Below are positions 9,506-35,901 of a DNA stretch of 64,000 bases, piece after piece. The translations under genes were made by a program, and so were the position numbers. A model generated the notes under the pieces. That model made no database searches. It was not told where the DNA came from and saw only the letters and a program-made list of their open reading frames with translations. Position 1 is the stretch's first letter. Every line of letters begins with the position of its first letter. The DNA is from an uncultured Acidobacteriota bacterium (GTDB taxonomy: Bacteria; Acidobacteriota; Terriglobia; Terriglobales; Acidobacteriaceae), in NCBI GenBank assembly GCA_963819365.1, contig CAWFVY010000005.1, positions 8,809 through 72,808 of the forward strand, written 5' to 3'.

Positions 9506-9535
9506 AGCGGCCTCCCTGGGCGCGGGGTGAGTCAC

Positions 9536-9581: not shown

Positions 9582-9586
9582 GCCGG

Positions 9587-12409: not shown

Positions 12410-12712
12410 CTATTTGCGCAGGGGCCGCTTTACCAATGTCGGAGATCCTCCCTGTATCTCCGCTTCCGCCTTGTAGGCGAGAACCGTATAGATCACGCCG
12501 TTCTTTGACTGAAAAGCTTTGATCAGAGCCTCACCTTCACTTGCCGCTTCCGCGCCAAGCTCGGGTTTCTCAAACGACGATCCGTCCTTGGCGAGAAAGT
12601 ACCGAACCCCCTCCTCAACTTGCCGGCGAGATTTGCGCGTGTTCCTGGGCTTTGATACCTGTGCCGGTTGCGGCTGCATCTCCGCAACCCGAGCGACCGT
12701 AGCTTCCATCAC
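12410..12712 (-). CDS. Hypothetical protein (100 aa)
   Basis: RBS AAGGAGG, overlaps the upstream stop; directly precedes the RNAP-like gene. Confidence 0.7.
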   Translation of the reverse strand: MMEATVARVAEMQPQPAQVSKPRNTRKSRRQVEEGVRYFLAKDGSSFEKPELGAEAASEGEALIKAFQSKNGVIYTVLAYKAEAEIQGGSPTLVKRPLRK

Positions 12713-13451: not shown

Positions 13452-13459
13452 GAGCCCTC

Positions 13460-14872: not shown

Positions 14873-15770
14873 CTGTTGGTCAGCGCTCCGTTAATGAGGC
14901 CGTTGTTGTTCGTGTTGTCTGCGGTTGCGAGCTTTGAAGCCTTGCTCTGATTGGCCAAGTCGATGCCGCGTGTCCTCATGAGTTCGGCCAGTGCAGCCTG
15001 CGTGTAGGCATTGGCGCGCACGACCCACACGTCGGCCTCGGCCTCGAGGATCTCCGCGCTTCCGGGAGCTGCCTGCGAAATCTGCTGTCCCATCTGATTC
15101 GCTTCGTTCAGTTCCGCATCGGCGAGGGCATCGATTTCGATGGCCCGCTTCATCGCGTCCTGTGCCTGCGCGTCGGTCATATCGGTCATCGTTCTCATTT
15201 GCGGGGACGCAGCATTCTGCGGCATCACAACCCCATACACGTTCTGAAACTGGCCCGATAGGGTTGGCACATTGGCCGCGTTGCGCGAGAGCAGGAGAGC
15301 TTCGAGATTCTGCGACTGCGGCAGGGTGGCGCTCGATACGTTGACACGGAACATGCCGCTGACCTGGTTGAACTGGTTCTCGAACTGCATCACCGACGTT
15401 TTTGCCTGATTGATCGCGGTGAGCGGGTACATGACCTCTTGCTCATACTTCGCCGTGCTTTGTTCGTACTGGTTGATCGTCCTGAGCGGTGCGGCGATAT
15501 AGGTATTCATCAGCGACTGCATCTTGGATAGCGCCGCCAGGATCGCGGCCGTGTCGATGCCAAACTGTCCGTTCGCGTGGGTTGGCAGGATTGCGAGGAC
15601 TCCAAGCACGACGACCGACACCTTCAGCAGAGTTGGCCGGTACCAGGGTTGAACCGCGCTCGACGCATCCTCTAAGGGCGCGGCTTCGGCGGTTCCGGCG
15701 GGAGTTGGGGCCTGCGGCGCCAGAAGAATGACCTGCGACGCTTGTTCGGGTTTTTCTTGGGATCGGTCAT
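14869..15770 (-). CDS. VirB5/TrbJ-like secreted protein, copy 2 (frameshift in N-terminus)
   Basis: Signal peptide ending AxGQF; Gln/Met/Ala-rich helical body; position between virB4 and virB6. Confidence 0.5.
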
Positions 15771-15780
15771 CGAAAGCTCC

Positions 15781-16633
15781 TTATCGCGCCGTCAGGGCTC
15801 CGGTGATCAAACTGTTGATTCCACCGGTCGCGGCGGTTCTGCGTTTCACAAGAACGTTGTCGTGCGCAATGCGGCCTGCCTCCTGACGCAACTCCGCCGC
15901 AAGCATCTTCTGCATGTACGCCTGGCAGCGGAGATTGGCGACCTGCGCTTGGGCGGTCAGGAACGGATTCGAACCGGGTGTGCTCACCGCAACCTGGTTT
16001 TCCATTTGATTGGCGGTCTGAAGAATGACATCCGCGCCCTGATCGGCGATCAAGGTTGTTTTGAGATTCTCCTGCCCTAGCGCGTCGTCCACGTCCATCA
16101 TCACGCGGTCTTGTGGCGAAGCGGTGTTTAGCTGCGGGATAGCGCCGTAATTCGAAGTGAAGCTCGTCTGCAGATGCGGGAATTTCTGTCGACAGGCGGC
16201 TATGCAGGATGCTTTCGAACTGTTGCGGCCCCGGAGTCACGGCGCTTGTGAACGGCGTGTTGAACACCTGATTCATCTGCCCGCGATAAGTGTTGATCGA
16301 ATTTGCAACGAAGCCTCGGGCCTGGTTGATTGCCGCCAGCGGCGCAACCGTTGTCTGATAGAGCTTCTGCATCTGCTGGGCAATCTGGTTGATGGCTTGA
16401 GAGAGCTGCCGATGTCGTTCTGAATCGAGCTGAAGATCGCGTCGAACACGCTAAGGAATTGCCCTTGAGCGAGCTTGGGCAGGGCAAAGCACGTCTCGAT
16501 CACCAGAACAACAATGAGCACTCTCCTCTTCCAGCGAATCTTGCGTACCCCGCTTTCGGCCGCACCTCGATCGTCCTTATACGGCTCTCCATTCAGAAGT
16601 AGCTTCATCTCGGGTTGGGTATTGTTCAGTCAT
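15781..16633 (-). CDS. VirB5/TrbJ-like secreted protein, copy 1 (frameshifts)
   Basis: Paralogous to 14869-15770 (PLAAINQAR vs PLTAINQAK; MMMDVDDA vs MTDMTDA; ITGALTAR vs INGALTNR). Confidence 0.5.
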
Positions 16634-19279: not shown

Positions 19280-19470
19280 AGCTAATGTCTCCCTCTAGAG
19301 TTCCATCCACCTCGATCTGCAATTGCTGCTCCACGATCCGTGCGAGTGGAGCGATCTCCTCATGAAAGCGTGCTGCGAAGATGACGCACGCGAACGTGAC
19401 GCGTGCCGCTTCCGCGTCGAGAACAGCGACGACCGTCCCGCTCCTCTGGTTGTGATCGATGCCTGCATCC

Positions 19471-19815
19471 TCATTCCTCCTCTTCGACCACGTAAGGTTG
19501 AGTCAGTTCCGAATCTCGCTCAAGCGCGCACCAGGCCTTCGGAGCAAAGAACGAGCGGACCAGGTCGGTGAGATATCCGCGCGGCCTCCCATACTTGAAC
19601 AAAATCAGGAACGGCACAGCCAACGCCGGCACGATGAACTCCATGAAGACGTTCAGCGGAATTCCGAACACATGCGCATTGCCATTCACGAAGTGCGCAA
19701 GGAGGTTCATCAGCGCCGCCAATGCGAGCACCAGAATCAGGTCCTCAAACTCCAGGCCAAGGAACGTCACCTTGGTGTGAAGGTTGCGGTGAACCGGCGT
19801 CATATCGAGACTCAT
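19471..19815 (-). CDS. VirB3-like membrane protein
   Basis: TPVHRNL...TFLGLEFED, two TMs, GRPRGYL; immediately upstream of virB4. Confidence 0.65.
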   Translation of the reverse strand: MSLDMTPVHRNLHTKVTFLGLEFEDLILVLALAALMNLLAHFVNGNAHVFGIPLNVFMEFIVPALAVPFLILFKYGRPRGYLTDLVRSFFAPKAWCALERDSELTQPYVVEEEE

Positions 19816-19819
19816 GACA

Positions 19820-20953
19820 TTACCCTCCGATTCCGTGCGCTTGCGTCACCATCGACTCGGCCAGGCGCACCATTCCCGAAACCATGAGCGCGCCGATCGC
19901 TGCGACGAACTTTCTGATCCAGGTCGAACCCGGATAAATCTCCGAGACCACTCCGGCCATGTGCATTGCCATCGCTGCCAATTGCGTGAGCGCGAACATG
20001 GGCAGGATCACGTTCGCCGTCCAGTTCACCAGGCTCATCGTGGCCATCCAGAATGCATCGGCATTCGTCGCTCCTGCGTGTTGCACGAACCCTTCTAGCG
20101 CCCGCAGCATCCCCGAACACAGTAGCGAAGCGAAGCCTCCGTACAATGGCTGCTCGAATGGACCACCTTTGCTGTAGCGATACACAGCTCCTGCAAAGAA
20201 CAGTCCCGCCATCGTGGGCATCATCGTGTTGCCGGCCCAGGATGCGAGGTTCGTGATGGCCCCATCAAGACTCATAACCTTGCTCCTCACGCCGCCATCG
20301 CTCGAAACAGCGACAGAAGGCCACTCACGCTCAAGGAAAGAGATCGCGGCGAAGACAAGCCTGGTCCAGGGTCTGTGCCGGACGAAGTTGATCACTGCTC
20401 CGACACAGGCTAGTCCCGCCGCAGCCGGCAGAATCTGTCCGGCGATGTAGTTCCACAGGGAAGCGAGCATATCGGTCATCGCGTACTGGCTCCCTGAGTT
20501 CCATCCTTGAAAGAGCTGCATTGTTGCCGAGAGCGACATCAGGAAAAGTGCGGCAACGATCGAGCCGAGCGGATTCTCGCCTGCGGCCCCGTCGAGCGTT
20601 GCTTTCAGGACGAAGTACGCCGCAAGGACTGGCACCAGCTTGGCGACGACGATTTGGTTAACGAAATTCTTGAATACCGTTTCCATGCTGGCCAACCAAC
20701 TCGTACTCACCGATCCGCTCGCGGACGGTATGTTGATGCCCTGCGCGGCAACCCACGACAACAGTTGCGGAAGGGTCAGAAGAACGATGGTCCACAGAAT
20801 CCACTTTCCGGCCCGGCCGTTTACGTGGAAGTTGATCCCGCCTTCATGTCGTAGGCTCACTCCCGCGGCAGCCAGCGTGCAGAACGCCGCCGGCACCGCG
20901 AGATCGAGCAGCAACTGGAGGAGATCGAGGAGGAACTGTGGCGTCTGCATCAC
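19820..20953 (-). CDS. Concatenated VirB2/pilin-like modules (probably two genes; second start ATG 20275)
   Basis: Repeated units W..N.I.P..A...GAV...R...W...L..SG..R; internal RBS GTGAGGAG before MSLDG. Confidence 0.55.
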   Translation of the reverse strand: MMQTPQFLLDLLQLLLDLAVPAAFCTLAAAGVSLRHEGGINFHVNGRAGKWILWTIVLLTLPQLLSWVAAQGINIPSASGSVSTSWLASMETVFKNFVNQIVVAKLVPVLAAYFVLKATLDGAAGENPLGSIVAALFLMSLSATMQLFQGWNSGSQYAMTDMLASLWNYIAGQILPAAAGLACVGAVINFVRHRPWTRLVFAAISFLEREWPSVAVSSDGGVRSKVMSLDGAITNLASWAGNTMMPTMAGLFFAGAVYRYSKGGPFEQPLYGGFASLLCSGMLRALEGFVQHAGATNADAFWMATMSLVNWTANVILPMFALTQLAAMAMHMAGVVSEIYPGSTWIRKFVAAIGALMVSGMVRLAESMVTQAHGIGG

Positions 20954-20965
20954 TCTCCGCCTTTA

Positions 20966-21401
20966 CTACTGAATGCCTTGCGCTTGAGTGATGAAACCCT
21001 CCGCCATGCGTCCGAGACCGGAGATCACCATGAGGGCGACGCCGCTCACACCCCAACCCATGTAGCCGCGTCCGGACTTGAAATGCCATCCCGCGATGCC
21101 GAGGCACGCAACTGCGATGACCGGCGCAATGACATTGCAGCCCCAGTTCACGATGTTGAGGACGGTGCCTTCGACAGTGGTCGCCTGCTGGCCTTGCACG
21201 GCCTGTCCGAACTGCAGGTGCGGTTCCGAGGTTCTGCGCTCTCGCCGCGAAGGGTGCGAGCAGATTGCCGGCGAGGATCAAACTCAGTCCCATCTTGATG
21301 GCGACGTGCAACCAATTGATCTCGTCGGGGCGGTGAAAGACGTGCGTGGAGGTGGAAGCGGACACTTGGGAGCGCCGCCAGAAGGCCAGTGCGGTTCTCA
21401 T
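20966..21401 (-). CDS. VirB2-like pilin precursor (frameshift between leader and mature part)
   Basis: RBS CAGGAG, leader ending AARAQ, then two hydrophobic helices (NWGCNVIAPVIAVACLGIAG; WGVSGVALMVISG). Confidence 0.6.
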
Positions 21402-21452
21402 AGGTTTTCTCTCCTGGACCCGGCTGCTCTCATGGCATCCGTGTCGAGCGAG

Positions 21453-21484
21453 AGAATGAGTGCGGAACCGAAATTCGGTCAAAT
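21453..21484 (-). promoter_or_regulatory. ICE promoter motif copy B, upstream of the pilin-virB4 operon
   Basis: ATTTGACCGAATTTCGGTTCCGCACTCATTCT (TTGACC-18-CATTCT). Confidence 0.6.
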
Positions 21485-21668
21485 GAGCTGGCCGGACCAG
21501 GATGGGTCGTCGGTCTATCTCCAATAGACTGAGGAGGTTCTAGCGACCGAGAGATGCCGAGGCGGGGCTTCCGCCTTCTGGAGCGTTGGAACGATTTGGG
21601 GAAATCGAGCTAAAATCTCAATCGAAGAGCCCGGTGTCGCAAGCTGTCGCCAGCTCAGGGACAACGGC

Positions 21669-22130
21669 ATGGCATCCGTATCGCAGCAGAACCCGTATCA
21701 ATGCGACCAGTGCGGGACCGCGAACATCGTGGCTGCGCCCGTCCTCTATCAACAGGGAACACACACTTACTCCACCAGGTTCCATTCGGGGACGACCCAG
21801 TCCTTTTCCGCGCAGGCGGTTACACCACCCCGTCCCCGGGGTTATCTCCGGCCTTTCTTGCTTTGGGGACCCGCAATATGCTTTTTTCTCTCTTTGGACG
21901 GTTCGTCGGGTTCTAGCTCCATCTCTCGAACATCCAAAGGATGACAACAAGCTGGCAGAGCTACCGTCGTATTCTTCTTGCTTCTGGGTGTCAGCGTCGC
22001 TTGTGGGCATGGTCTTAGCCTTCGCAAAATCGCGCGCTACAACCGTGAGGTCTATCCGCGTCTACATTGGAACTGGGAGCACACCTATATATGTAGGCGT
22101 TGCGGACGGTTCCGCCTGATTCCTTCGTAG
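21669..22130 (+). CDS. Membrane protein with N- and C-terminal CxxC pairs (frameshifted)
   Basis: MASVSQQNPYQCDQC..., hydrophobic middle, final frame ...TVVFFLLLGV...HTYICRRCGRFRLIPS stop 22130. Confidence 0.5.
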
Positions 22131-22221
22131 CTCAGAGACCTGGCTGGTTCATCTGGACTTAATCGGCATAACGGTTGAGTCTCTGAAACTCTCGGTGCGA
22201 TCGTTCTCATGTCCACACCGG

Positions 22222-22589
22222 CTCTATTCGGGAACGACGATTACCCAAGTCGCACTTTGGGTCATTGGGAAGGATCTTTACCCAATCCGGAATTGGGTAA
22301 TCGGGAACAACAGATTCCTCAATTTGCACACTGGGTAATCGGGCATGTTTCTTGCCCAATCGCGAAGTGGGTCAACGGGACCGATCTTTGCTCAATCGGA
22401 ATTGGGTCATCGGGAACAAAAATGACTCATTCTGCAGACTGGGTCAATGGGACCGTTGTTTGCTCAATGGCGAAGTGGGTCAACGGGACCGATCTTTGCC
22501 CAACTTCACATTGGGGCATCGGGAGCAAAGATTGCCCAACTGCGTACTGGGTCATGCGGACCGACCTTGACCCGAACGGGAAGTGCGTC
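22222..22589. repeat. Degenerate ~36-bp tandem array (9 full units + partial) with ~108-bp higher-order period
   Basis: TGGG(T/G) starts at 22258, 22294, 22332, 22368, 22403, 22440, 22476, 22512, 22548; each unit TGGGTCA.YGGGA...T(G/A)C(C/T)CAA. Confidence 0.9.
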
Positions 22590-22680
22590 CAGGGGAAGGG
22601 CGCATTACAGGCACATTTCTTGGAGACGCGACGCAAGAACGATGAGCCGCAAGGCAACTCGCCAGTTGAATATGATGGCC

Positions 22681-22713
22681 AAACACAAGAACGCCCCGGC
22701 ACTGGGCCAGGGC
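22681..22713 (-). terminator. Possible terminator after virB10
   Basis: GCCCTGGC-CCAGT-GCCGGGGC followed by GTTCTTGTGTTT. Confidence 0.4.
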
Positions 22714-22744
22714 GAAGAAGAGAGTCGTGCGGCGAGTGGGCAAT

Positions 22745-24007
22745 CTACTGAACCGTTGGGCTGACCTTGTGAAGCTCGGAAGGCGTTTGTTCGTGTTTGG
22801 TAAACACGACGTAGATCTTCGTGTCGGCCGGAACGGAGACTACCACACGGCTGTTGGCATTGAGGCTCATCACCTCCGAGTCTCCCGCCGTGCCGATATT
22901 CTCGGCAAGCCGCTCACGAAGCATGTCGTCCTCAGAAAACGCAGCGCTGGTGTTGTTCCCGGCAACTTCTGCAAGCACCGAGCCGAGACCCGATGCCGCC
23001 CGCACCAGAAAGTTCTTACCCGTGTTCTTCCCGTACACGCTTCCTTTGATGGGTCCGAGGTCCAGCCCAGTTCCGACAGCGTCGATCTTCTCCCGGGCTC
23101 CATCGAGAAGTTCGATCTCGTCGAACTTCACGCTCACCAGTCCGCTTCGGTCGGCCTGCTGGAGCTGACCGTACACGCGTGCGCCCGCAGGGACGATAAT
23201 TCTGTCGCCGATCGCGTAGGTGTATTCGACTACGGCTACGACAGGGGCCAGCACAGCGCTCGATATCTGCGTCTCAAGCTTCGCCTGAATGCGCGTACCC
23301 GGTGTCAGTTCCAAGCGAGGAGTACCATCCTCGCCGGTATTGAGCTTCTGTGCAGCCAACGCTGGGCTTTGCGCCACACTTCGCACAAAGACCAGAGACG
23401 GCTCCTTGAGGGTGTTCTGTTGCGCTTGCGGCGTTTCCGCGTTGGGAGTTCCGCCATAGGGCGCCGGATCTTCCCACTTCTGTTGCGTGTCTGCGAAAGA
23501 GGGTACATTTCCCAGGGAGCTGGCAACAGCAGGCTTGCCGGCAAACGGCTTCAAACCTGAGCTATTGTCCAGTGTTCGTGTCCGACGAATATCCCCTGGA
23601 CCGAGCTGCCCACTGCTGTTATCCGGCGCCGGCGTGTGCTCGGTATCCATGAGGGGTGTCACACTCCCTTTGGGCTTCGGCGACTGCTCCTGTTTGGCCT
23701 GCTGCGAGGGCTGCTTAACTGCCGCTAGTTTCTTCGGAGACTTGCCAACGATCGCCGCGAAAACAAAGAAGAGCACCGCAACTGCAAGTCCGCCTCCGAG
23801 GAGCATCAGTTTGCCCTTGCTTATTCCTTCAGCTCCCTTGACGGCAGTTCGCGTTGCAAACCGGGTGACGGGTTCCGCTTTCTCCGCGCCATCGATAGGC
23901 TCGGGCGCGCGAATCCGTCCTTGCGAAACCGCCGGCTCTGACGATTCTGCGACAGGAGTAGTGTTCATGCTCCCGTTTCCATTCCTGTTGTTCTCATTGG
24001 CGTTCAT
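22745..24007 (-). CDS. virB10: VirB10/TrbI-like protein
   Basis: Single TM, Pro-rich linker, C-terminal LTPGTRIQAKLETQISS...IVPAGARVYG...VPADTKIYVVF. Confidence 0.82.
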   Translation of the reverse strand: MNANENNRNGNGSMNTTPVAESSEPAVSQGRIRAPEPIDGAEKAEPVTRFATRTAVKGAEGISKGKLMLLGGGLAVAVLFFVFAAIVGKSPKKLAAVKQPSQQAKQEQSPKPKGSVTPLMDTEHTPAPDNSSGQLGPGDIRRTRTLDNSSGLKPFAGKPAVASSLGNVPSFADTQQKWEDPAPYGGTPNAETPQAQQNTLKEPSLVFVRSVAQSPALAAQKLNTGEDGTPRLELTPGTRIQAKLETQISSAVLAPVVAVVEYTYAIGDRIIVPAGARVYGQLQQADRSGLVSVKFDEIELLDGAREKIDAVGTGLDLGPIKGSVYGKNTGKNFLVRAASGLGSVLAEVAGNNTSAAFSEDDMLRERLAENIGTAGDSEVMSLNANSRVVVSVPADTKIYVVFTKHEQTPSELHKVSPTVQ

Positions 24008-24024
24008 AACCTTGGGGCTCCCTT

Positions 24025-24981
24025 CTACTTGCCATCGCCGGATATGGGTGGAGTGAACGGAAGATGGATCAAGATCGGATGATCCACCTGATCCGCTTGG
24101 GCAATCTGCAGAAATAGCTTTTCGGTCGATTCCTTGAAGTTCGGCCGATCAAAGACGACCACGCCATCGGCGCGTTCTCCCGGCTCAAGGCGCGTTGTAC
24201 TCAACCTGTAGTCCCGGATTTCCAGTTGGTCCGAGATAATGCCTTTCCCCTCCTTCTTTTTCTTCTTGGTGGCCTTGCGACCTGTGATCTGGATTTGCGG
24301 AGGGACAATCTCGATAGGCTCATTCGAGCTGTTCAGGATGGAGTACGAGATCATGGTCTGATTGCTCAACTGCCGCATATCGCCAATCGATGTCTCGATT
24401 TGCTTGTCCTCCCATTTCGTCCACTTCGGAGCGTTCACGCTCTCCTGCAGCTTGAACACCTCGTCGAGGCTCGACAGCGGCGCCGAACGCAAACCGGCGG
24501 TCCCGCCACTCACGCCCTGCGCGGGTTCCTTAGTGGGCGCGCTTCGCGTCGCCAGGGATTCAGGATCGGCGGAAATGAGGAAGCTCCGCGTCGTTCTGTA
24601 TTCGATCAGAAAATCAACCGGCTGCGTTGGATTCGTGACACTCGCGCCATCGCTGACCAGTTCCAGCGTGACATGCTGTCCTGATTTAGTTGCGATGAGG
24701 AGGTTCGACTGCGCAGCCTCTTTAACGATCGGTTTGACGTAGACATACTCCGGCTCGCCTTCGTTATGTTCTGCCTTGAACTCACCCGGGCTGCCGAGGA
24801 TTACGGATGTGATCTCCTCCGGCATGCGGATGGTCGATTCAAACTCTGGCCTGAGATGAAGGACCGTGACTTCTCTCGGATTGATCGTGACAGTGGCGAC
24901 ACGTGCTCCAACTGGTGTGTCGCTCGCGCTGAGACGAAGCGGAAGCAGGACTGCGACAGGGATGAGCCAGCGAAGTTTCAT
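24025..24981 (-). CDS. VirB9/TrbG-like secreted protein
   Basis: Signal peptide; VTVLHLRPEFESTIRMPEEITSVILG...VYVKP...SNLLIAT; adjacent to virB10. Confidence 0.65.
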   Translation of the reverse strand: MKLRWLIPVAVLLPLRLSASDTPVGARVATVTINPREVTVLHLRPEFESTIRMPEEITSVILGSPGEFKAEHNEGEPEYVYVKPIVKEAAQSNLLIATKSGQHVTLELVSDGASVTNPTQPVDFLIEYRTTRSFLISADPESLATRSAPTKEPAQGVSGGTAGLRSAPLSSLDEVFKLQESVNAPKWTKWEDKQIETSIGDMRQLSNQTMISYSILNSSNEPIEIVPPQIQITGRKATKKKKKEGKGIISDQLEIRDYRLSTTRLEPGERADGVVVFDRPNFKESTEKLFLQIAQADQVDHPILIHLPFTPPISGDGK

Positions 24982-25459
24982 GGGGTTGACCTCCTCGACG
25001 GCCGAGCGGCCGGATACCTGCGAAGCATGTACTGCCTTCGCACCGCTTGCACGTAGGCGACAACTTCCGGATTACGATAATCCAGTTGTTCCCGTGCAAT
25101 GTTGCGGTCGCCGGCGTAATAGGCAGCGGCAACCAGACGCAGATCTCCGTGGAATTCCCACATCAATGCCGTGACGTAGCGGGTGCCTGCGGCAATGTTT
25201 TGTTCCACATCAAAGGGCTCGAAAGGCGCCAAATCGCTTCGCCGTCGCCGGCATGAGCTGCATCAGCCCCATCGCTCCCTTGGCGGAGACCGCTCGCGGG
25301 TTCCAACGCGATTCGACGTCGATGAATGCGGCGATCAACTCCGGCGGCACACGATAGTGCGCCGCATACTGCCTTACGATCCGCGCTGCCGGTACAGGAT
25401 CCGTCTTGCCCAACGGCAAGATTGGGAAATACCAGCAGTATGAGTACGCACCGAATCAT
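24978..25459 (-). CDS. virB1: VirB1-like lytic transglycosylase (frameshifts)
   Basis: IDVESRWNPRAVSAKGAMGLMQLMP and QNIAAGTRY...AAAYYAG SLT motifs. Confidence 0.85.
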
Positions 25460-26562
25460 GATGCTGATCCTCCTCGGAGCGCGAGACTCTGCGCGAACCT
25501 GGCTCCGTCGTCGAGCAAGCTCTTGAACCCCTCCCGCAACAGGAGGTGGCGACGGTCCTTCTCGGTCTTCGCCAAGAACGGAAGCAGCACGTCGCGGTGC
25601 TCCGCTGTTACGTGGTCGGTCCCGAGGAGTTGCAGTGCATTGGCGAAGTCGATCATCTCCGAGACCGATGGCGGCTTTTCCAGTGAGTAGTTGCGGAAGG
25701 AGAGCGCTATTCCGGCCATCTCGCGATGGAAGCTCTCATCGGCCTTCGGGGTGCGGCTGGCAATGATCTCGGCTTCGCGCTCCGGCGTCGGATGCTCGAC
25801 CCGCACATAGAGGCTTCGCCTCCGGATTGGGTCGCCCAGCCTGCGTTCCTCGTTGCTGGTGAGCACGACGAACGGGAATGCTCTTTGCTGCGACCGTGCC
25901 GAACTCAGGAATCGAGAGCTGCCAGGCGGAAAGGATTTCTAACAGCATCGCTTCGAACCCATCGTCTACCTTGTCCAACTCGTCAATAAGCAGCACACAC
26001 GGCCGATCGCATTCGAGTGCACGCATCAGTGGACCAGGCCGAAAGAAGTCCCGCCCCTTGAGGTTCGCCTGAACGGTCTGCCAGTTTTCGTGCTCGCCTT
26101 TTGAAAACTCCATGTAGAGACGCTGCAGGCTCTCGTCGAAGCGACCGATGGCCTTGTCCTCGGTTACACCGCGATAGCACTGCAGCCGCTCGACATGCGT
26201 GCCGGCAGCAGCGGCGACAGAGATGGCAAATTGGGTCTTGCCGCTGCCCGCGGGCCCTTCGAGCAGCAGCGGCTTTTGGAGCTTGGCGGCGAGAAAGACC
26301 ACCTGGGTCATCACCGGGTCGATGAAGTAGCCCGTGGCCGCGAGTTTGGTCCCGAGATCGTGCGATTGAATCAAACATCTGCTTTGTCCTCGCGCTTCTA
26401 CTTGAATTCCAGCCGCAGTTTGCTCTCCGGTCGGCTTTCCGACCCAAAGGCGGATCGTTTGGTGGGGGAAACCACTTGCGCCCAGACATTCGCGAGCGAT
26501 CGTGACTCCCAACTCAGCAAGGAGGACCAAAAGCCTGCGTTCCAAAATGTCTTCCGCTTCAC
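25456..26562 (-). CDS. MoxR-family AAA+ ATPase (frameshifts)
   Basis: LLLEGPAGSGKT, ERLQCY, GPLMRAL, LLIDELDK, VLTSNEERRLGDPIRRRSLY. Confidence 0.85.
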
Positions 26563-26617
26563 CTGAACCTCCTCCAATGCGGAGACAGCATGAGACGGCA
26601 TCAAAACTCGGTCAAAT
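26560..26617 (-). promoter_or_regulatory. ICE promoter motif copy C plus leader/RBS, upstream of the moxR-virB1-virB9-virB10 operon
   Basis: ATTTGACCGAGTTTT...CTCATGCTG..TCCGCATTGGAGGAGG..GTG (TTGACC-17-CATGCT). Confidence 0.7.
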
Positions 26618-26656
26618 TTCCATTTGAGGCTGTGGATTTACTCCGTCCGATTCAGT

Positions 26657-26932
26657 TCACGATTCCGGCCGGGCGGAAAGCCCAGAAACGGTAACGGCTA
26701 AGCCGTTCGGGCAAGCCGGTTGCGCCCTGCCTGGACTGACCTCGGTCTTACGGCCATTCCCGCCAGTCGGCAGGGGATCCACCCATTGCTCTATCGCTTC
26801 AGGACGGTAGCGCACAAGCGGCCCCACTTTCACGTACTGGGGTCCTTCTCCGCGAAGCCGCCACCGTCTCAAGCACGCCAAGCTAACTTGGATTTTTTCT
26901 GAAACCTGGATTTCATTCAGGAATGATTCCAT
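26657..26932 (-). CDS. AlpA/excisionase-like helix-turn-helix regulator
   Basis: FLNEIQVSEKIQVSLACLRRWRLRGEGPQYVKVGPLVRYR (HTH_17/AlpA pattern). Confidence 0.85.
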   Translation of the reverse strand: MESFLNEIQVSEKIQVSLACLRRWRLRGEGPQYVKVGPLVRYRPEAIEQWVDPLPTGGNGRKTEVSPGRAQPACPNGLAVTVSGLSARPES

Positions 26933-27887
26933 AATGGGAGAGCCAGCGTAATGGTATACAGCGTTTCGGATGAGAAGATTGACGCCTGGTTTGCAGCCTT
27001 CAACCGGCAGAATTGCTGGAACTTGCTAGCAACGAAAGGCGCAAATCGAGATGAGATTCAGCGGTTGCAAAATACAACATAGAGAGTTCTGGGCGTACTA
27101 CCGCTGACTCGTCCCTACCCGAAACCGGCTTCCCAGGGCTGTCCCCCAGGGAACGGCGAATGTTCGTCAAAGGGACGAGTAGCCCACGACTCGCCCGTGA
27201 TGATGCGAGTTGCGATGTATCGTGCCACTATGCAGCTAATGACGGTCACAAACTTGCGTGTTGAGTCCATCACCGGACCCGCCTGCTATCGCCGGGAGAA
27301 CGGATTCTCCGCGCTGATTGCCTACGTGAAATGCGATGATACCGAAATTTCGAGGCAACTCCGCAATGCCGCAGACGCAGGCAATGGTTTGGACTTGCAA
27401 TAGGGGCACTGCAGGGACATGGGGCTGCCGGGAAGAGCTTCAGGAACAGGTGGTTTAGGCATGGGCCGAGTCTAATCCTATTGCGCACGCTCTTCACGCG
27501 TTTTGCGTAAACGGGTTTTCAGGTGAGCGCGAAAATCCGAAACGCGGCGAAAATCCTTTCCCCCTTCCGTCCAATTCCGCTGAAGTGTGCGCGAAACGCC
27601 CCCGGCGAATTGCGCAAGCGGCCGGAGCGCGGTCCCGGGGTTGCCAGGGCCAAAACGGCGGGCACTGTCCGGCGGGCGTCCCGCCCGAGAGTGACCGCCG
27701 ACTCGTCCCTAATCCGTGTCGGCGCTGCTGCCTGTGGGCGAACGTTCGTCAAAGCGACGAGTGGTCCGCTATTCGGCCAGAACCCCGAGGAGCTTCGAGT
27801 TTGGAACGATTTCATCTGCCGTGCGTCTGTTCATTTGGAGGTTCACATGACCAAGTGCTTCCTGGCGTTCGCGCTCTCAGTTCCGAC

Positions 27888-27945
27888 CACGGAGCCTCCT
27901 CCAATGCGGAACCAGCATGAGGTGATTTGAAAAACTCGGTCAAAT
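27888..27945 (-). promoter_or_regulatory. ICE promoter motif copy D plus leader/RBS (near-duplicate of 26560-26617), overlapping the integrase stop
   Basis: ATTTGACCGAGTTTTTCAAATCACCTCATGCTGGTTCCGCATTGGAGGAGGCTCCGTG. Confidence 0.65.
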
Positions 27946-29043
27946 CGGGACGTGGCAATCAGGCCCGGCAACCTCCCCCTGTTGTGGGGTTTTGCTACTC
28001 AGCCGATTCCTGCGGACCTCCAGTTTCTCAACAGCGTCTTCGACATCGGAATGGGCTACGATCGCATATCTTTCGAAGACACTCCGCGTCTTCCAGCCGC
28101 CGATCTTCATGATCACGCCCTCGGCGATGCCGGCTCGCCGATAGTTCCTTGCTGCTGTCCGGCGCAGGTCGTGAAAGAGCAAATTGGGAACCCCCGCGGC
28201 TTTGCACGCCTTTTCCCACGTACCTCGAAAATCTTTCACGGGTTTCCCATTTGGCCACGTGAGCACGTAAGCATCCGGTGCCTTGCCTTGGACGCATAGA
28301 GTCAGGAGTGCGTGAATGATCTTTGTCATCTTGACCTCTCGGCCCTCTTTGTTCTTCGTGGTGCCAGGATGGAGTCGAATGGTCCAGTTCTCGAGCTCAA
28401 TTTGATTGACTCTCAGCTTCTTTAGTTCGCTAATGCGCCATCCATAGGTAGCTCCGAGTTCTACAACCGTTTGGAACCAACGCTCCGAGCAAGACTCCAA
28501 CAGCTTTTCGAATTGAGCATCTTCCAGAAAGCCTTGACGGATATTGCTCTCAGCGAGCCGCGGGAATGCGGGAACAAAAATGATCTTCGGAGGTGTTGCC
28601 CTCCGCCCAAGACTGAACATCCTCTTAAACGCCGCGAGTTCCCGATTGATGGTTCCGTTTGCGGCTCCCTCGACTTGGCGTCTGTCGACGTATGCGTTCA
28701 GCAGGCTGCTCGTGACCTGCACCGCACGAAGAGATCCGAAAAATGGCCGGATATGAAGACGCCATCGCGCCTCGCAGTCGTCCAGCGAAGCCTTACCATT
28801 AATGCGGTAGTCGCGGAGGAAGTCCTCGGCAAGCTCCGTGACGCGAGTGCGCTCTACCGTGGGTCCGATGAATTTTCCCGTCATCACTTCCGCCACGCGG
28901 AGATTCAATGCTCGTGTTGCCTTGCGCTTGTCGGACGTTCCTGTCGACTCCCGAAAGGGCTCCCCATTTCGATAGAACTTAATCCACCAGACACTACTGT
29001 CCTTCTGCCGATAGATTCTCCCGGTGCCACGTGGGCGCCTCAT
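27940..29043 (-). CDS. int: Tyrosine recombinase/integrase
   Basis: TYGWRISE (R), TTKNKEGR (K), FHDLRRT (HxxR), GGWKTRSVFERY (catalytic Y); N-terminal arm-binding domain GTGRIYR...WWIKFY. Confidence 0.96.
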   Translation of the reverse strand: MRRPRGTGRIYRQKDSSVWWIKFYRNGEPFRESTGTSDKRKATRALNLRVAEVMTGKFIGPTVERTRVTELAEDFLRDYRINGKASLDDCEARWRLHIRPFFGSLRAVQVTSSLLNAYVDRRQVEGAANGTINRELAAFKRMFSLGRRATPPKIIFVPAFPRLAESNIRQGFLEDAQFEKLLESCSERWFQTVVELGATYGWRISELKKLRVNQIELENWTIRLHPGTTKNKEGREVKMTKIIHALLTLCVQGKAPDAYVLTWPNGKPVKDFRGTWEKACKAAGVPNLLFHDLRRTAARNYRRAGIAEGVIMKIGGWKTRSVFERYAIVAHSDVEDAVEKLEVRRNRLSSKTPQQGEVAGPDCHVPI

Positions 29044-29321
29044 TCTACCCTCCGCGATCCGTTCCGGGTGTGGGTTGTGACCGCTGCTACCGAGAAGCCA
29101 ATATTCGGTGAATAGTCGTCGGGGATTGAGCGCTTGTGGTTTTCAACATAGCTGTCAAGATCCCGAATATCGAGGAGGAAGGGGCCTCCCTCATGATCCT
29201 GCACAACCGGAAACGCGCCTTCTTGAATCAGGCGCCTCAGCTTCCAGTCGCTCATGGAGAGATATGCGGCCGCCTCTTTGGTGCGGATGAGGCGGCGGTG
29301 TAGTGTGGCTGTCGTCGTCAT
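29040..29321 (-). CDS. xis: Excisionase (HTH_17)
   Basis: LIRTKEAAAYLSMSDWKLRRLIQEGAFP...DIRDLDSYVE; stop overlaps the int start. Confidence 0.85.
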   Translation of the reverse strand: MTTTATLHRRLIRTKEAAAYLSMSDWKLRRLIQEGAFPVVQDHEGGPFLLDIRDLDSYVENHKRSIPDDYSPNIGFSVAAVTTHTRNGSRRVE

Positions 29322-29374
29322 AGATGATTCCTCGTCATGAGTTCTCACGTCCGCTCCCGACATGGGGCGAACGT

Positions 29375-29405
29375 ATCGTGGAGTCAAACGCTGACTCGGT
29401 CAAAT
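29375..29405 (-). promoter_or_regulatory. ICE promoter motif copy E, upstream of xis-int
   Basis: ATTTGACCGAGTCAGCGTTTGACTCCACGAT (TTGACC-17-CACGAT). Confidence 0.55.
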
Positions 29406-29562
29406 CAGCGCAGATCCGTGCTGAGGCGCGATGATGGAACTTGTTTCGAGGAAAGTCTTCGGGGTACTCGCCGGCATCAGGCAGGTAGCGATAGCATCCA
29501 GCCCAAAAAGGGGAGAGCTTGGGTGCTACACAGATCCATCTGACATAGACGGTAAAGGCGAA

Positions 29563-29621
29563 AACCCAAACTTTTCGAGTTTGGGCATAGTTTGGGCATA
29601 GTCGTGTGATTGAACCCAAAC
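29563..29621. repeat. Putative integrase arm-type binding sites of the att junction
   Basis: Direct repeat AGTTTGGGCAT x2 (29578-29599) flanked by two AACCCAAAC copies (29563, 29613), ~100-150 bp from the crossover. Confidence 0.65.
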
Positions 29622-29716
29622 GGACAGTTTTCGCCGTTTCCTTAAGTCGCAGATTGCGAAAGTCTTATGCGTTTGCGCAACGGAGACTTGGACCTTCGTC
29701 GGGCTCGGTGCCTCTT

Positions 29717-29756
29717 ATTTTAAGTCCGCTGCGTCTGCCAATTTCGCCATCCGGGC
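29717..29756 (-). tRNA. trnL: 5' half of tRNA-Leu(UAA), interrupted at the anticodon loop (att core)
   Basis: GCCCGGATGGCGAAATTGGCAGACGCAGCGGA-CTTAAAA-T gives the acceptor 5' strand, D arm and anticodon loop; the expected CCGC 3' stem is replaced by AAGAGG. Confidence 0.85.
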
Positions 29757-29911
29757 ATGGCTTTGAGGACGGTGATTCTCAGCCTGTCCATGTTCATTCT
29801 ACCCACCACAGAGACGAGATGTGCACGGAGCACGACCTGCTCATGTCGCGACGCGCCGGCTGTGTGGTCGAAAAACCCAACGTGAGGCGAAACGGCCAGG
29901 CGATCCACGCT

Positions 29912-30688
29912 CTATCCGTCCAACTCGCCCGCAGATTCCGGGTCAAGAAAGAGCGTGGCGCCGGGATGGGTGCGCAGGACGGTGGCCGGGCAATCGGTGG
30001 AGACGGGGTCGTGCAAGGCTCGGCGGACAATAGCCGCCTTGCGCATGCCCGGAACCGAGAGGATCAGGCGGGGCACGCGCATCAGCGCAGGAACGGTGAG
30101 CGTGATCGCCGCCTCCGGGACATCCGCGATGTCTGCGAACCAGCCTTCGGCTACCTGCTGCTCGCGGCACATCCGGTCGAGTTCGACAACCTTGGCGTCG
30201 AGCGGGTCAGCGAAATCGGCGACAGGCGGATCGTTGAAGGCCAGATGGCCGTTCTCGCCGATTCCCAGGACGCAGAGTTGCGGTGCGGCGGCGCGGAGTT
30301 GTTCAGCGTAGACGTCTGCGGTCCGCTGAGGGTCGAGCGCGTTGCCGTTGATCTCGTGGAACTGCTTCATAGGCACGAGATTCGTGAGCTTCTCGCGCAT
30401 GTAGCGGCGGAAGGACGCGAGATGATCGACGGGCAGACCGATGTACTCGTCCATGTGGAAGCCAATGATCTGGCGCCAGGGAACGCCTTCGACAGAGATG
30501 AGCGCGGCAAGGGTGCTGATCTGCGACGCCCCGGTGGCGAAGATGACTGCGATGGAGGCGTGGATGGGCTGGAGAGAAACCAGCGTCTCGGCAGCCGCGC
30601 GGGCGGCAGCTTCTCCGGCTGCGTCGCGCGTGGGGTGGATCTCGACGGAGAGCTTATCGAATTTGAGCCGTTTTGGTTCCGGGGGCAT
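29912..30688 (-). CDS. nagB: Glucosamine-6-phosphate deaminase
   Basis: FATGASQ, FHMDEYIGL, LGIGENGHLAFNDP, AITLTVPALM. Confidence 0.9.
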   Translation of the reverse strand: MPPEPKRLKFDKLSVEIHPTRDAAGEAAARAAAETLVSLQPIHASIAVIFATGASQISTLAALISVEGVPWRQIIGFHMDEYIGLPVDHLASFRRYMREKLTNLVPMKQFHEINGNALDPQRTADVYAEQLRAAAPQLCVLGIGENGHLAFNDPPVADFADPLDAKVVELDRMCREQQVAEGWFADIADVPEAAITLTVPALMRVPRLILSVPGMRKAAIVRRALHDPVSTDCPATVLRTHPGATLFLDPESAGELDG

Positions 30689-30818
30689 AAAGCGAGCTAT
30701 TCTCCGGGTTGACGTTATCACAAACGCATCCCGGCGGCGGCCGCAGCCTGCTCAGGTTTGGACTCTCCGGGAGCCGCGCCTGCATCTTTACAGATGGAAG
30801 CGAAATGAGGATCAACGG

Positions 30819-32285
30819 ATGGCACTGAACGAATCCGAACCGCGCATCGAGGATTTACCGATTGGAACCGGGGCCACGGGCGAACGGATCGAAAGCGATT
30901 CGATGGGCAAGATCGCCGTGCCGGCAGACCACTACTGGGGCGCGCAGACCGAACGCTCGCTGCATCATTTTGCAATCGGCACGGATCGAATGCCGATCGA
31001 GGTCTGCCGTGCTTATGGCTACGTAAAGAAGGCGGCGGCGTTGGCAAACGGCGAACTCGGCCTGCTGCCGCGGTGGAAGACGGATCTGATTGCGCGTGTT
31101 TGCGACGAGATCATCCGCGGAGAGCTCGATAGCGAGTTTCAGCTGAAGGTGTGGCAGACAGGCTCAGGCACGCAGACCAACATGAATGTGAATGAGGTGA
31201 TCGGCAATCGCGCCATCCAGCTTGCGGGCGGCGCATTGGGAAGCAAGGAACCGATCCATCCCAACGAGCACGTGAACCTGTCGCAATCGTCGAACGACAC
31301 GTTTCCGGGCGCGATGCACGTCGCCACGGTACTCGCGTTTGATGATCAGCTGATTCCGTCTGTGACTGCACTGAAGGATGCCATCTGGGCCAAGGCGCGC
31401 GAGTGGGTGGACGTAGTGAAGCTCGGCCGCACGCATCTGCAGGATGCAACGCCGCTCACCGTTGGGCAGGAGTGGTCGGGCTATGCCGTGCAGCTCGAGG
31501 ATGCCATCGAGGTGATGGAGGACTCGATGAAGCGCCTGTATCCGCTGGCCATCGGCGGAACCGCGGTCGGAACGGGGCTGAACGCCCCCGCGGATTTCGG
31601 GACGAAAGTGGCGGCGGAGATCGCCCGCATGACCGGCCGTCCGTTCATCACGGCGCGCAATAAATTCGCCGCGCAGGCCTCGCTGGATCCAATGGTGAAC
31701 GCCAGCGCGGCCCTGCGGATGCTGGCGGTCGCGCTGATGAAGATTGCCAACGATCTGCGCTGGCTGGGGTCGGGCCCGCGAGCAGGTCTGCACGAGCTGG
31801 TCCTGCCGGAGAACGAGCCCGGCAGCTCCATCATGCCGGGCAAGGTCAATCCCACGCAGCAGGAAGCCATGGTGATGGTGTGCATCCAGGTGATCGCGAA
31901 CGACACGGCCGTGGCCTTCGCAGGATCGCAGGGCAACTTCGAGCTGAATGCGATGCGGCCCATCGTCATCTGGAACGTCTTGCAGTCGGCGCGGCTTCTG
32001 ACGGACGCATGCAGCCGGCTTCGCGAGTTTGGCATCGAGGGCATCACGCTTGATCGCGATCGGATTCAGCGCTACGTCAACGACTCGCTGATGCTGGTCA
32101 CGGCCTTGAGCCCGGTGATCGGATACGACAAGGCCGCGCAGATTGCGCACAGTGCCATGGAGGAGAACCTGACCCTGCGCGAGGCGGCGCTGAAAAGCGG
32201 ATTCATCCGTGCCGAGGAGTTCGACAAGGTTGTCGATCCATCAAAACTGGTGGGCAACCCGCACGCGGACCTTGGACTTTCTTAG
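30819..32285 (+). CDS. fumC: Class II fumarate hydratase
   Basis: ESDSMG..VPADHYWGAQT, WQTGSGTQTNMN, GRTHLQDATP, signature GSSIMPGKVNPTQ. Confidence 0.96.
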   Translation: MALNESEPRIEDLPIGTGATGERIESDSMGKIAVPADHYWGAQTERSLHHFAIGTDRMPIEVCRAYGYVKKAAALANGELGLLPRWKTDLIARVCDEIIRGELDSEFQLKVWQTGSGTQTNMNVNEVIGNRAIQLAGGALGSKEPIHPNEHVNLSQSSNDTFPGAMHVATVLAFDDQLIPSVTALKDAIWAKAREWVDVVKLGRTHLQDATPLTVGQEWSGYAVQLEDAIEVMEDSMKRLYPLAIGGTAVGTGLNAPADFGTKVAAEIARMTGRPFITARNKFAAQASLDPMVNASAALRMLAVALMKIANDLRWLGSGPRAGLHELVLPENEPGSSIMPGKVNPTQQEAMVMVCIQVIANDTAVAFAGSQGNFELNAMRPIVIWNVLQSARLLTDACSRLREFGIEGITLDRDRIQRYVNDSLMLVTALSPVIGYDKAAQIAHSAMEENLTLREAALKSGFIRAEEFDKVVDPSKLVGNPHADLGLS

Positions 32286-32396
32286 AGTGCGTAAAAAAAC
32301 CTCTTCGGGGCCGTGGACGCCGTCGGCGCAGACCCTGCCGCTGGCTGGTTTTCAAACGTTCGGTGATACACTTCGCTCGGGGAAAACGACGAAACC

Positions 32397-32924
32397 ATGA
32401 AACCGCCATCGAACGTCAAGACGCCAGCGCAATACATCGCCTCACTCCCCGCCGATCGTGCGAAGACGATCGCGACGGTGCGCGCCCTCGTGAACAAGCA
32501 CATTCCGCGCGGCTACGATGAGTGCCTCGTCTGGGGCACGATCGGCTGGGCGATTCCCCTGTCTCGATATCCAGACACTTACAACAAGCAGCCGATCACC
32601 TACGTCGCGCTCTCGTCGCAGAAGAACTACTGCTCGCTCTACCTGATGGGCGCGTTTTGGAGTGCGACTCAGCTCGAGCAGCTGAAGGCGGAGTTCAAGG
32701 CGGCGGGGAAGAAGCTCGACATGGGGAAGTGTTGCGTTCATTTCGAGTCGCCGGACGATTTGCCGCTCGAAGCGATTGGCAAGCTGATCTCGGCAATTTC
32801 GAGCGAGAAGTGGATCGAGATGTACGAACAAACGCGCTTGATGACCAAGGCGGGGCAGGCGCAGAAGGCGAAGCAAGGCGCCCCAGCGGCGAGCAAGGCG
32901 TCCGCCAGGCGCGCCCGCTCCTAA
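32397..32924 (+). CDS. DUF1801/YdhG-like protein
   Basis: YIASLP.DR, LSSQKNYCSLY, KKLDMGKCCVHF. Confidence 0.8.
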   Translation: MKPPSNVKTPAQYIASLPADRAKTIATVRALVNKHIPRGYDECLVWGTIGWAIPLSRYPDTYNKQPITYVALSSQKNYCSLYLMGAFWSATQLEQLKAEFKAAGKKLDMGKCCVHFESPDDLPLEAIGKLISAISSEKWIEMYEQTRLMTKAGQAQKAKQGAPAASKASARRARS

Positions 32925-33000
32925 GAGGAGAACGAGCCCCGCCTGAGCGCACATGCGTGAACCCTGAACAGCGGGTCCACCCAACGGCAAAAGCCTTGAC

Positions 33001-33264
33001 CTATTGCGGATTGCGGAAGCAGATGTTCTCGCCCTGAAGCTGGTACTCGGCAGAGCAGAAGTCGCCGCCGCAGATCATGGGTTCGCAGCCGCAGAGCTGC
33101 CGGCGCGTGATCAGCCCCATGGTTCCGCAGCGCGGACACGACATGACGGCGACGTAAGGGTTTTGGGCATTCCCCAGCGAGGTCTGGTTTTCGAGAACGA
33201 AAACCGTGCCGGGGTCCATTCTCTCGGGGATCCATTCTTCCAGAAACTGCAAGTCGGCTGACAT
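33001..33264 (-). CDS. Small Cys-rich (Zn-ribbon-like) hypothetical protein
   Basis: CPRC...CGGDFC; preceded by RBS GGAGGG. Confidence 0.65.
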   Translation of the reverse strand: MSADLQFLEEWIPERMDPGTVFVLENQTSLGNAQNPYVAVMSCPRCGTMGLITRRQLCGCEPMICGGDFCSAEYQLQGENICFRNPQ

Positions 33265-33539
33265 CCTGCCCTCCAAGGGTTGAGATGCAAGCAAGCCGAT
33301 GCGATGATCCGCGCCGACTCCGTTGTAGCAACACGAGCAGCTGCGAGAGTCAACCCGGAGATTGGACGCTTCCGGGTCGAAAACAGTGTTGCCCGGCCCG
33401 CAGGTTTCGTCAATGAGAATCGCATGAGGGGAGTGCCGATATGGATTCCTCTATCGGATATTCAGGTTTGGGACGCCAGTTTGGCCCCAAAGACGAAACG
33501 GGCTCGCCGAGGGCCAATCCGCCCCTCGATCCCTAAAAA

Positions 33540-35901
33540 TCACTGCTTGCGTGAAGCAATCCCAGCCTTGGCCTGTGCGGTTGCCGCAGCATCAATGCCG
33601 CGATAGATCTCCTCGTTGCGGAGAATTGCCTGGACATAATCACGGGTCTGCGTGAACGGAATCGACTCCACGAATTCATCCATACCGCGATACGGGCCCG
33701 CGGCCTGCCAGTCCACCACGCGCGAGTCGCCTGCGTTATAGGCGGCAAGCGCATACTCCTGCACCCCGCCGAATTTATCCAGCATCTGACGCAGATAGCG
33801 CGTGCCAAGCCGGATGTTTGTCTCAGGATTCAGAAGTTGATAGGTCTGGAAGCCCGAGATGCCTTCCTGGCGCGCCAGCGACTTGCCCACGCTTGGCTCG
33901 ATCTGCATCAGGCCGTACGCATTGGCGTAGGAGATGACAGTGGGGTTGAATTCTGATTCCTGCCGGATCAACGAAGCCACTAGATAAGGATCGAGGCCGT
34001 TCTTTGCGCTCTCGGCCTTGATCGTGTCCCACCACGCCTCCGGGAAGAGAATGCGCCAGTACGCCAGCGGAATCGATTTGATGGGAGCCGAAGTGGCGAA
34101 CGGCAGGGCCTTCTTCAGCGACCGCATGGCGCGATACGTCTCGCCAAACGACGCGTAGATCTGCGCCTCGGCCAGCGCGCCCCACGATGCATAGTCAGGA
34201 TCGGCTGCCAGCTCCTGGCCAATGAACTCATTGAGGCCGGCGTTGGCAATGAGCCGCGCCTTGGCGATGTGCGGCGAGTCGGCCGGGAACGTATCGACCA
34301 GGTGCGGCACCGGCGGGGGCTCGTAGCCGTCTATGCGCTGCGAGACCAACTCCGGCTGCCCCAGAACCTTCAGGCGTTCACGCGACATCTGCGCGTAGAA
34401 GTAATGCTGATAGCGCGAGACAACGGCGCGATAGTTCGTCGTGGCCAGAGCAGGCTTGTGGTCCTGCATCTCGTAGAGGCGGCCGCGCCAGTAGAGAGCC
34501 GCAGCCCGTTCCGTGTCGTCGGGAAAGAGCTTGATCTGCTCATCGAAAATTCGCGCGGCGTCAGCAAAGTTGCCCTCGCGATACAGGAGCCAGCCCGCGC
34601 GCCAGTGGGCGGCGGCGGAATTCTTGTTCGTGGGAAAGTGCAACGCGAGATAGGAGTAGTAGCCGATGGCCTGGGGGTAATCGCGACGCAACATATACAT
34701 GTTGCCGCTTGAGAAGAGCGCCTCGGCCAGCCACTGGCTCTGCGGGAACCGCTGCTTGAGATCCTCAACCATCTGCTGCTGCGCGCCATCATTCTGGGCG
34801 CTGCGGGCCAGTTCCATCAGCAGGTAGAGACGCCGCGCGCCATTATCGTCGTTCGTCTCAGGGAGTGCGCGGGCCTGCGCTTCAGTCAGCCTCTTGAGCT
34901 TGAGGTCGCATGCCGCTGCCGCCACCGCAAATCCATTGCGGACGCTCGCTTCGATCTGCGTGTTACGGGCCAGCGCATGGTACTGCTCTGACGCAAGCTG
35001 ATACCGGCCCGCGTTGTAGTAGGCATCCGCCAGGCTGCGCAGTTCGGCGGGAGTCAGGCTGCTCTCGGCGCCCATCGAGGTAAGGCGGGCCCGGGCCACC
35101 TCGGCTTCCGGGCTAAGCGGGTGGCTGAGCAACAGGTGTTTGAACAGCCGCAGCGCCTCGTCATTCAGCTGGATGGAGTAGGCGATTTTAGCCGCGGTCA
35201 GCTCGTAGTTCGGTTTGTCGCGGGCGACGTCCGCAACCGTGAGTAGCGCGCGCTGGGCGGCCGTAGCATCGCCCTGGGCCAGCAGCACATTCGCTTCGAG
35301 TTCCGGGGCTTCCACTTCGAAGATGCTGTCCGGGTAGCGGTCATTGAAGCCCTTCAGGAGGGCCTTAGCCGCGCTTTCGTTCTGCTGAGCGTGGAGACAC
35401 TCAGCAGCAAGGAAATCGGCATAGTCTCCCAGCACATCGCTGCGCCTCTTCACCTGCTCGAATGCCGAAACGGCATCGGCGTAACGCTTGTCGTCCTGGT
35501 AGGCGCGCCCCAGTGAAAGGTACGCTGCCGCGGCGGCGTCGCCGGTGTGGCGCTGCGCAAAGCCGTTAACGCCGGCGTAGGCGGCCGGGGTGCGCATGGT
35601 CTGGAGCTGCGTGGCCATGGGCCGCAGTTCCGACGACGCAACAAATGCCTGCTTCAGCCGGGCAGTCCGCGCGCGGCGCTCCGCGGGCGTGCCGCGATGG
35701 CTCGTCCTGCGAGCGGTGGATTTGGAGGATTTTCTTCTTGGTCGTAGAAGTGTGTTTCTTTGTCGTGGAACCGGCAGCACTACTCGAGCCTTGTCCTGAG
35801 ATGGGGACCGCGGCAACCAGCAGACAAATCAATCCAGCCAGGCAGGCCTTACCAAGCCTGGAGGGAAAAATCGGGGAAATGCATACCCTCATATATTCCA
35901 C
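33540..35901 (-). CDS. slt: Soluble lytic murein transglycosylase with TPR repeats (N-terminal frameshift)
   Basis: IRQESEFNP...AYGLMQ, ALAAYNAG, ESIPFTQTRDYV; signal peptide in the 35566-35901 frame. Confidence 0.88.

Follow-up and report, generated by a model that had tools for sequence, protein, structure and literature searches.

An ICE has displaced the 5' half of a tRNA-Leu(UAA) gene in an acidobacterial genome, and a 5' half carried by the element itself probably rebuilds the gene at the element's far end, a reading to which we assign a probability of roughly 0.78. The 5'-fragment layout is a rare but known one, rather than a translational switch. The window, by which we mean the whole 64-kb stretch of DNA that was analysed (G000:C5:8809-72808), comes from a metagenome-assembled genome of 38 contigs that is 91% complete, and named relatives place the host in the Acidobacteriaceae, near Terracidiphilus. 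A first-pass annotation of the same DNA had described the host as GC-rich, which overstates a measured G+C content of only about 58-60%.

On the minus strand, window positions 29717-29756 read GCCCGGATGGCGAAATTGGCAGACGCAGCGGACTTAAAAT, a perfect 40-nt 5' half of tRNA-Leu(UAA). This half comprises the 5' strand of the acceptor stem, the D arm, the 5' strand of the anticodon stem, the loop CTTAAAA and the first base of the stem's 3' strand. The break falls one base past the loop, after position 40, and the junction thus lies inside a tRNA gene at the anticodon loop. The same 5' half, identical or nearly so, is found in the intact tRNA-Leu(UAA) genes of at least nine relatives. The likeness to a tRNA stops after CTTAAAAT, and the next bases, AAGAGGCACCGAGCCC... 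(also given as AAGAGGCACC...), are non-tRNA. ARAGORN found no tRNA gene in the 64-kb window and Rfam RF00005 had no match at the junction. The features around the junction are:

29717..29756, minus strand: displaced 5' half of the host tRNA-Leu(UAA), positions 1-40, occurring once in the whole assembly.
29718-29724, minus strand: anticodon loop CTTAAAA, within the orphan 5' half.
29796..29825, minus strand: promoter-like site TGCACA-18-TAGAAT of the host tRNA-Leu(UAA), a consensus match only, at 9/12 positions.
29670..29716, minus strand: element-borne stretch in place of the tRNA 3' half, a probable decayed pseudo-3' half by column-for-column alignment with the intact tRNA-Leu(CAA) 3' halves of sister ICEs.
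29579..29601, minus strand: integrase arm-type doublet, two copies of CTATGCCCAAA, P' arm, conserved in all sister ICEs and unique in the assembly.

The promoter-like site is of the sigma-70 kind, and one such site was found where 0.3 were expected from shuffled sequences. It is now orphaned and directed through the 5' half toward xis and int, which lie on the same strand, and no terminator was predicted between the half gene and these next genes. Transcription from the orphan tRNA promoter into xis and int would fit this geometry. At this junction the first-pass annotation was largely borne out: it had reported the perfect 40-nt 5' half, a TAGAAT -10-like box upstream, unrelated DNA straight after the half and a gene that is not restored, and the integrase-proximal side indeed lacks a rebuilt tRNA. 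Its further statement that the window contains no 3' half also holds, the sole 3' half in the assembly being on contig C10.

The DNA to the left of the junction is the element and that to the right is the chromosome, since a 97-aa gene and a 758-aa SLT/TPR gene found on the right precede tRNA-Leu(UAA) in many relatives (at least eight). The genes and segments on the two sides are:

1..29716: ICE body, continuing to the start of contig C5 and at least 38.5 kb in all.
29040..29387, minus strand: xis-like helix-turn-helix protein, 115 aa (PF12728 HTH_17, E 1.1e-5, 26 bits, just below the cut-off of 27).
27940..29043, minus strand: tyrosine integrase, 367 aa (PF00589, E 1.8e-17).
25736-26545, ICE body: AAA ATPase.
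24025-24981, ICE body: VirB9-like gene (the Pfam matches for ICE transfer genes include CagX).
22745-24007, ICE body: VirB10/TrbI-like gene (the Pfam matches include TrbI).
16630-19197, ICE body: VirB4/TraC-like gene (TraG P-loop/VirB4-like match).
6887-8335, ICE body: coupling protein (T4SS-DNA_transf match).
29912..35816: chromosomal flank, recognised by Pfam matches.

The xis-like gene, the integrase gene, the VirB9-, VirB10- and VirB4-like genes and the coupling protein gene are all on the strand of the half gene. Conjugation machinery is present in the form of type IV secretion genes and the coupling protein, both recognised by Pfam, and no relaxase was identified among the ICE genes. With its integrase, xis-like and type IV secretion genes, the element agrees with the earlier description of an ICE integrated in the anticodon loop of tRNA-Leu(UAA). 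The xis-like protein is 85% identical in Terracidiphilus sp. SPRUCE 456, and the arm doublet can be written degenerately as CTATGCC(T/C)AAACTATGCCCAAAC. A 637-aa ORF inside the transfer cluster (window 9587-11500) had no Pfam match. The genes of the chromosomal flank encode a lactonase/glucosamine-isomerase-like protein, a lyase of the class II fumarase/aspartase family (Lyase_1 and FumaraseC_C), a DUF1801 protein, the 97-aa protein and the SLT/TPR transglycosylase. Contig C5 terminates inside the ICE, so that the far junction is absent from the assembly, and no second att-like site was found within C5:1-38524.

Integrases about 62-81% identical to that of the ICE are found in other Acidobacteriaceae, where they adjoin tRNA-Leu genes; the cultured Acidobacteriaceae bacterium TAA 166 encodes an integrase of 66% identity. 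These sister ICEs (L066, L067, L068 and L103) have the arm-site doublet, the xis-int order and the position relative to the tRNA in common with the present element, the order being tRNA, arm-type doublet CTATGCCCAAACTATGCCCAAAC, xis and int, as here. They differ in their target, which is tRNA-Leu(CAA) instead of tRNA-Leu(UAA), and in their element-borne 3' half, which is intact and gives a complete tRNA-Leu(CAA) gene at the integrase-proximal junction, whereas the homologous 47 nt are degenerate here. Likeness of this 47-nt stretch to a tRNA 3' half is weak in the present genome (z 1.9) and clear in the relative L065 (z 5.8), in which the 3' half is recognisable but broken. These alignments suggest that the element-borne 3' half has decayed in this lineage, and by analogy the crossover would be placed in the anticodon loop. 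No tRNA-Leu fragment was found within 1.5 kb of the closest within-genus homologues of the integrase (G066, G087 and G088).

Evidence for the far end comes from relatives. Two genomes with decayed copies of the junction, SPRUCE 518 and MFD01476.bin.1.131, each contain one intact tRNA-Leu(UAA) gene, located at the other end of the element. In MFD01476.bin.1.131 the orphan 5' half shares its contig and strand with the only intact gene, which lies 14.4 kb further downstream, and the interval holds cargo-like genes and a piece of a transposase. No xis, int or transfer genes were found in the decayed elements that show the rebuilt gene. The approximately 480 nt preceding the intact genes are about 90% conserved among three genomes, while the DNA upstream of this block and that after the tRNA are unrelated among the genomes compared. 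Within the block lies CTATGCCTAAACTATGCCCAAAC, the arm doublet already met at window 29579-29601. Because the doublet is located in a conserved block before an intact tRNA gene, we infer that the far arm of the element carries arm sites together with a full 5' half, and hence that the gene is rebuilt at the far junction. One of the two possibilities offered by the first-pass annotation was that the far end supplies a replacement 5' half together with a promoter; the replacement 5' half was recovered, in related copies only, and the promoter part would follow by extension.

The window contains the integrase-proximal junction (attL) of an ICE whose recombination with the tRNA-Leu(UAA) gene of the host took place in or at the anticodon loop. 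Left at attL are the promoter and the 5' half of the host gene, followed directly by a decayed stand-in for the 3' half, and this copy of the gene is dead. At attR in the relatives, the 5' half of the element is fused to the 3' half of the host and yields a working gene. The same far-junction structure, presumably transcribed from an element-borne promoter, is likely to exist in this genome, in DNA outside the assembly, and the probable order at the locus is 5' fragment, ICE, intact tRNA, small island or islands, 3' fragment. The target is not regenerated at attL, and related copies show it regenerated at their other end, a part of the ICE that the present assembly does not reach.

Searches of the 91%-complete assembly with ARAGORN, with Rfam RF00005 and RF00028, with patterns and by BLAST with 16 intron-bearing genes of relatives as queries detected neither an intron-free nor an intron-bearing tRNA-Leu(UAA) gene. 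The second, intact copy that the first-pass annotation had proposed to look for was thus not detected in the assembly. Neither a second arm doublet nor a second 5' half was present, each occurring once in the assembly, and the assembled ICE contained no hidden 3' exon. Interruption of the gene by a group I intron was considered and rejected: the break lies after position 40, not at the U34/A35 site, RF00028 has no match in the genome, and there is no 3' exon. The lack of a detected gene would be explained by contig C5 ending inside the ICE, and location of the far junction in unassembled DNA is the simplest reading. Also missing from the assembly is tRNA-Val(UAC), a tRNA without which GUA should not be readable. 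SPRUCE 456, in which the junction is next to xis and a truncated int, has no tRNA-Leu(UAA) gene either, and its tRNA array contains Leu(CAA) and Leu(UAG) and no Leu(UAA). The SPRUCE 456 assembly is in fragments, however, and tRNA-Tyr too is missing from its Rfam matches, so the absence there counts for little, though it leaves a small doubt about the rebuilt gene.

The alternative that survives best is that nothing is rebuilt at the far end of the ICE and that UUA is read by another tRNA-Leu(UAA), perhaps an intron-bearing one, encoded in the unassembled 9% or so of the genome. Such an arrangement has precedents in at least ten species of the genus, in which an island of another family interrupts the same gene at the same spot and supplies a complete tRNA-Leu(UAA) containing a group I intron, and the incompleteness of the assembly, as witnessed by the absent tRNA-Val(UAC), would leave room for it. 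However, neither an intron nor any matching exon sequence is present anywhere in the assembly, and copies of the same element show restoration at the far end. We consider this alternative unlikely.

The intron-bearing islands are of interest in themselves. At loci in eight species of the genus (L016 in G011:C33, L038, L039, L040, L045, L046, L048 and L050), a complete second tRNA-Leu(UAA) gene, with a different acceptor stem and a group I intron of about 200-240 nt at U34/A35, comes after an orphan tRNA-Leu(UAA) 5' half whose last bases are CTTAAAAT, and decayed remnants of the same arrangement are found in G013 and G002. The orphan half and the second tRNA are mostly separated by about 1.4 kb, the distance being 0.43 kb in G043 and 50-70 nt in G013 and G002, and the spacer in G011 encodes a divergent, 441-aa integrase-like gene. 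At two far ends (L133, G035:C27:229663, and L137, G085:C1:241431), the host 3' half is about 49 kb further along the same contig and has no more than 11-23 nt of the 5' side before it; the host gene is therefore not rebuilt in these genomes. RF00028 had matches in 19 of the 81 genomes available for the genus. The islands apparently disrupt the host gene and supply in its stead a copy resistant to cutting by their own integrase, and they bear on the spread of tRNA-Leu(UAA) introns and on the long-standing proposal that an interruption protects tRNA genes from integrases. Their closest analogue is archaeal, at the tRNA-Thr gene of Caldiarchaeum (PMC3293823).

The first-pass annotation had also suggested that integration removes the only decoder of UUA, so that excision acts as a bldA-like switch, with the orphan promoter driving xis and int. 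If this were true, reading of UUA with the ICE integrated would depend on excision or on an unknown route. The suggestion gains from the fact that tRNA-Leu(UAA) was found neither here nor in SPRUCE 456, that is, in none of the two assemblies with the junction beside xis and an integrase gene, yet both of these assemblies are incomplete. The codon tabulation proposed for host and ICE also went against it, in that TTA is not confined to a small set of non-essential genes. TTA is the rarest leucine codon, making up 1.2% of leucine codons (1.1 per 1000 codons), yet 38% of the ORFs of at least 350 aa contain it. When the count was limited to ORFs of 300 aa or more and to the last 80% of each, the share ranged from 13 to 57% by GC3 class and was 13% even in the highest class. 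Among the ICE ORFs, 18 of 54 contain TTA, including the VirB4-like gene. With TTA this widespread, a cell without the decoder would not be in a mild condition of the bldA kind. Moreover, fossil junctions that are unable to excise persist where an intact gene is located at the far end. In Streptomyces, bldA is a tRNA-Leu(UAA) that is dispensable for growth, and TTA is confined to a few percent of the genes, none of them essential. The tRNA species is thus the same and TTA is likewise the rarest leucine codon here, but about a quarter or more of the long ORFs contain it. Taken together, we regard a switch of this kind as very improbable.

The sole tRNA-Leu(UAA) 3' half in the assembly, at C10:172440-172496, forms a perfect 89-nt tRNA-Leu(UAA) when combined with the 5' half. 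Together with a shared 11-bp sequence, GGACTTAAAAT, it was a candidate for the far end of the ICE, which we rejected because the neighbouring 2.4 kb constitute a separate conserved module without the ICE arm sites. Several genomes carry this module, about 90% conserved, beside a tRNA-Leu 3' half, and G096 has it at the same chromosomal locus with an intact tRNA-Leu(UAA) gene 4.6 kb away. No overlaps between contig ends link C5 and C10. The C10 3' half is most probably the fragment that another, smaller island, one of the restoring type, displaced in the usual way at this locus. That the two halves instead act as a split tRNA joined in trans, as in Nanoarchaeum, can be set aside: both are undamaged and their acceptor strands pair perfectly, but complementarity between the 5'-half trailer and the 3'-half leader is no better than in shuffled sequences, 38% of which do as well, orphan 5' halves decay in the relatives, and no bacterial split-tRNA system of the Nanoarchaeum kind is known.

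The C10 module itself (G000:C10:172496-174893; L011 7497-9894) encodes an HTH_3 protein of 258 aa and a DUF6036 nucleotidyltransferase-like protein, and is bounded by the tRNA-Leu(UAA) 3' half and a tRNA-Asp(GUC) 3' fragment. It occurs in many Terracidiphilus/Acidobacteriaceae genomes, sometimes beside a tRNA-Leu(UAG) 3' half instead, and may be a small mobilisable unit or a toxin-antitoxin cassette. Other displaced tRNA fragments in the same genome include three tRNA-Asp 3' fragments on C10 (at about 157667-157712, 174844-174893 and 194346-194411), two tRNA-Leu(UAG) 3' remnants on C30 (at about 47806 and 43462, downstream of the intact gene) and a tRNA-Leu(CAA) 3' half on C4 (at about 3555; the intact gene is on C18). 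All of these fragments on C10, C30 and C4 start at the anticodon loop, which points to heavy traffic of anticodon-loop integrases at tRNA-Leu and tRNA-Asp genes. In SPRUCE 456 (G093; L126 on C104 and L128 on C124), tRNA-Leu(CAA) is likewise split: the 5' half is followed by island DNA, and a complete tRNA-Leu(CAA) lies on a different contig from that half, 150 nt before an att remnant consisting of 23 nt of the 5' side and a 3' half. The same genome has 29 tRNA genes within 3.9 kb (G093:C108:2294-6164, L130), odd ones among them including Ile(UAU) and long 'Arg'/'Lys' genes, an array that is probably carried by a mobile element or phage. By-products of the analysis, such as the intron-bearing islands, may exceed the main finding in interest.

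The junction is not an assembly artefact, as it recurs in three other species-level genomes and in independent contigs. A 1.7-kb block that spans the junction and takes in the 5' half, xis and the greater part of the integrase gene has 91.5% nucleotide identity in SPRUCE 456, and the DNA surrounding the block differs between the two genomes. The exact junction word GCGGACTTAAAATAAGAGG is also found in SPRUCE 518 and MFD01476.bin.1.131, and metagenome contigs from independent bog and soil runs span the same junction. In the public runs, which contain little of the strain, no reads covered its attB, attP or attR, and the only crossings were of the same attL junction from related elements. A chimera of assembly or binning is conceivable for a metagenome-assembled source of 38 contigs, and the first-pass annotation had named a misassembly at 29717 as a possible refutation, but a break exactly at the anticodon loop that is repeated in these genomes and runs leaves such an error with a negligible chance.

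A lesson from this locus is that an essential tRNA gene may seem to have been destroyed when the end of a contig is missing. The locus also documents, in Acidobacteria, the rare type of element that brings along the 5' half of the tRNA it targets, with the integrase beside the dead 5' fragment. It further raises the idea that an orphaned host tRNA promoter may read into xis and int only while the element is integrated.

In the Islander survey (Hudson, Lau and Williams 2015, PMC4383910), 159 of 3919 islands had a 5' tDNA fragment. The present element shares with these islands a tyrosine integrase, a crossover centred on the anticodon loop, an orphan 5' fragment and regeneration of the gene at the opposite end. 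It differs from them in that the rebuilt gene is found here only in related copies, in that it is a large conjugative element with type IV secretion genes, and in that its attP seems to hold a whole tRNA-like gene with a decayed 3' half. At the tRNA-Cys locus of Anabaena variabilis, a 38-bp 5' fragment is followed by a 10-kb element, a complete tRNA, a 37-kb element and a 45-bp 3' fragment (bioRxiv 10.64898/2025.12.09.693284). This matches the order inferred here, also with att sites in the anticodon loop, although the Anabaena array concerns another tRNA and another phylum and lies on one finished chromosome, whereas the middle of the array is unassembled here.
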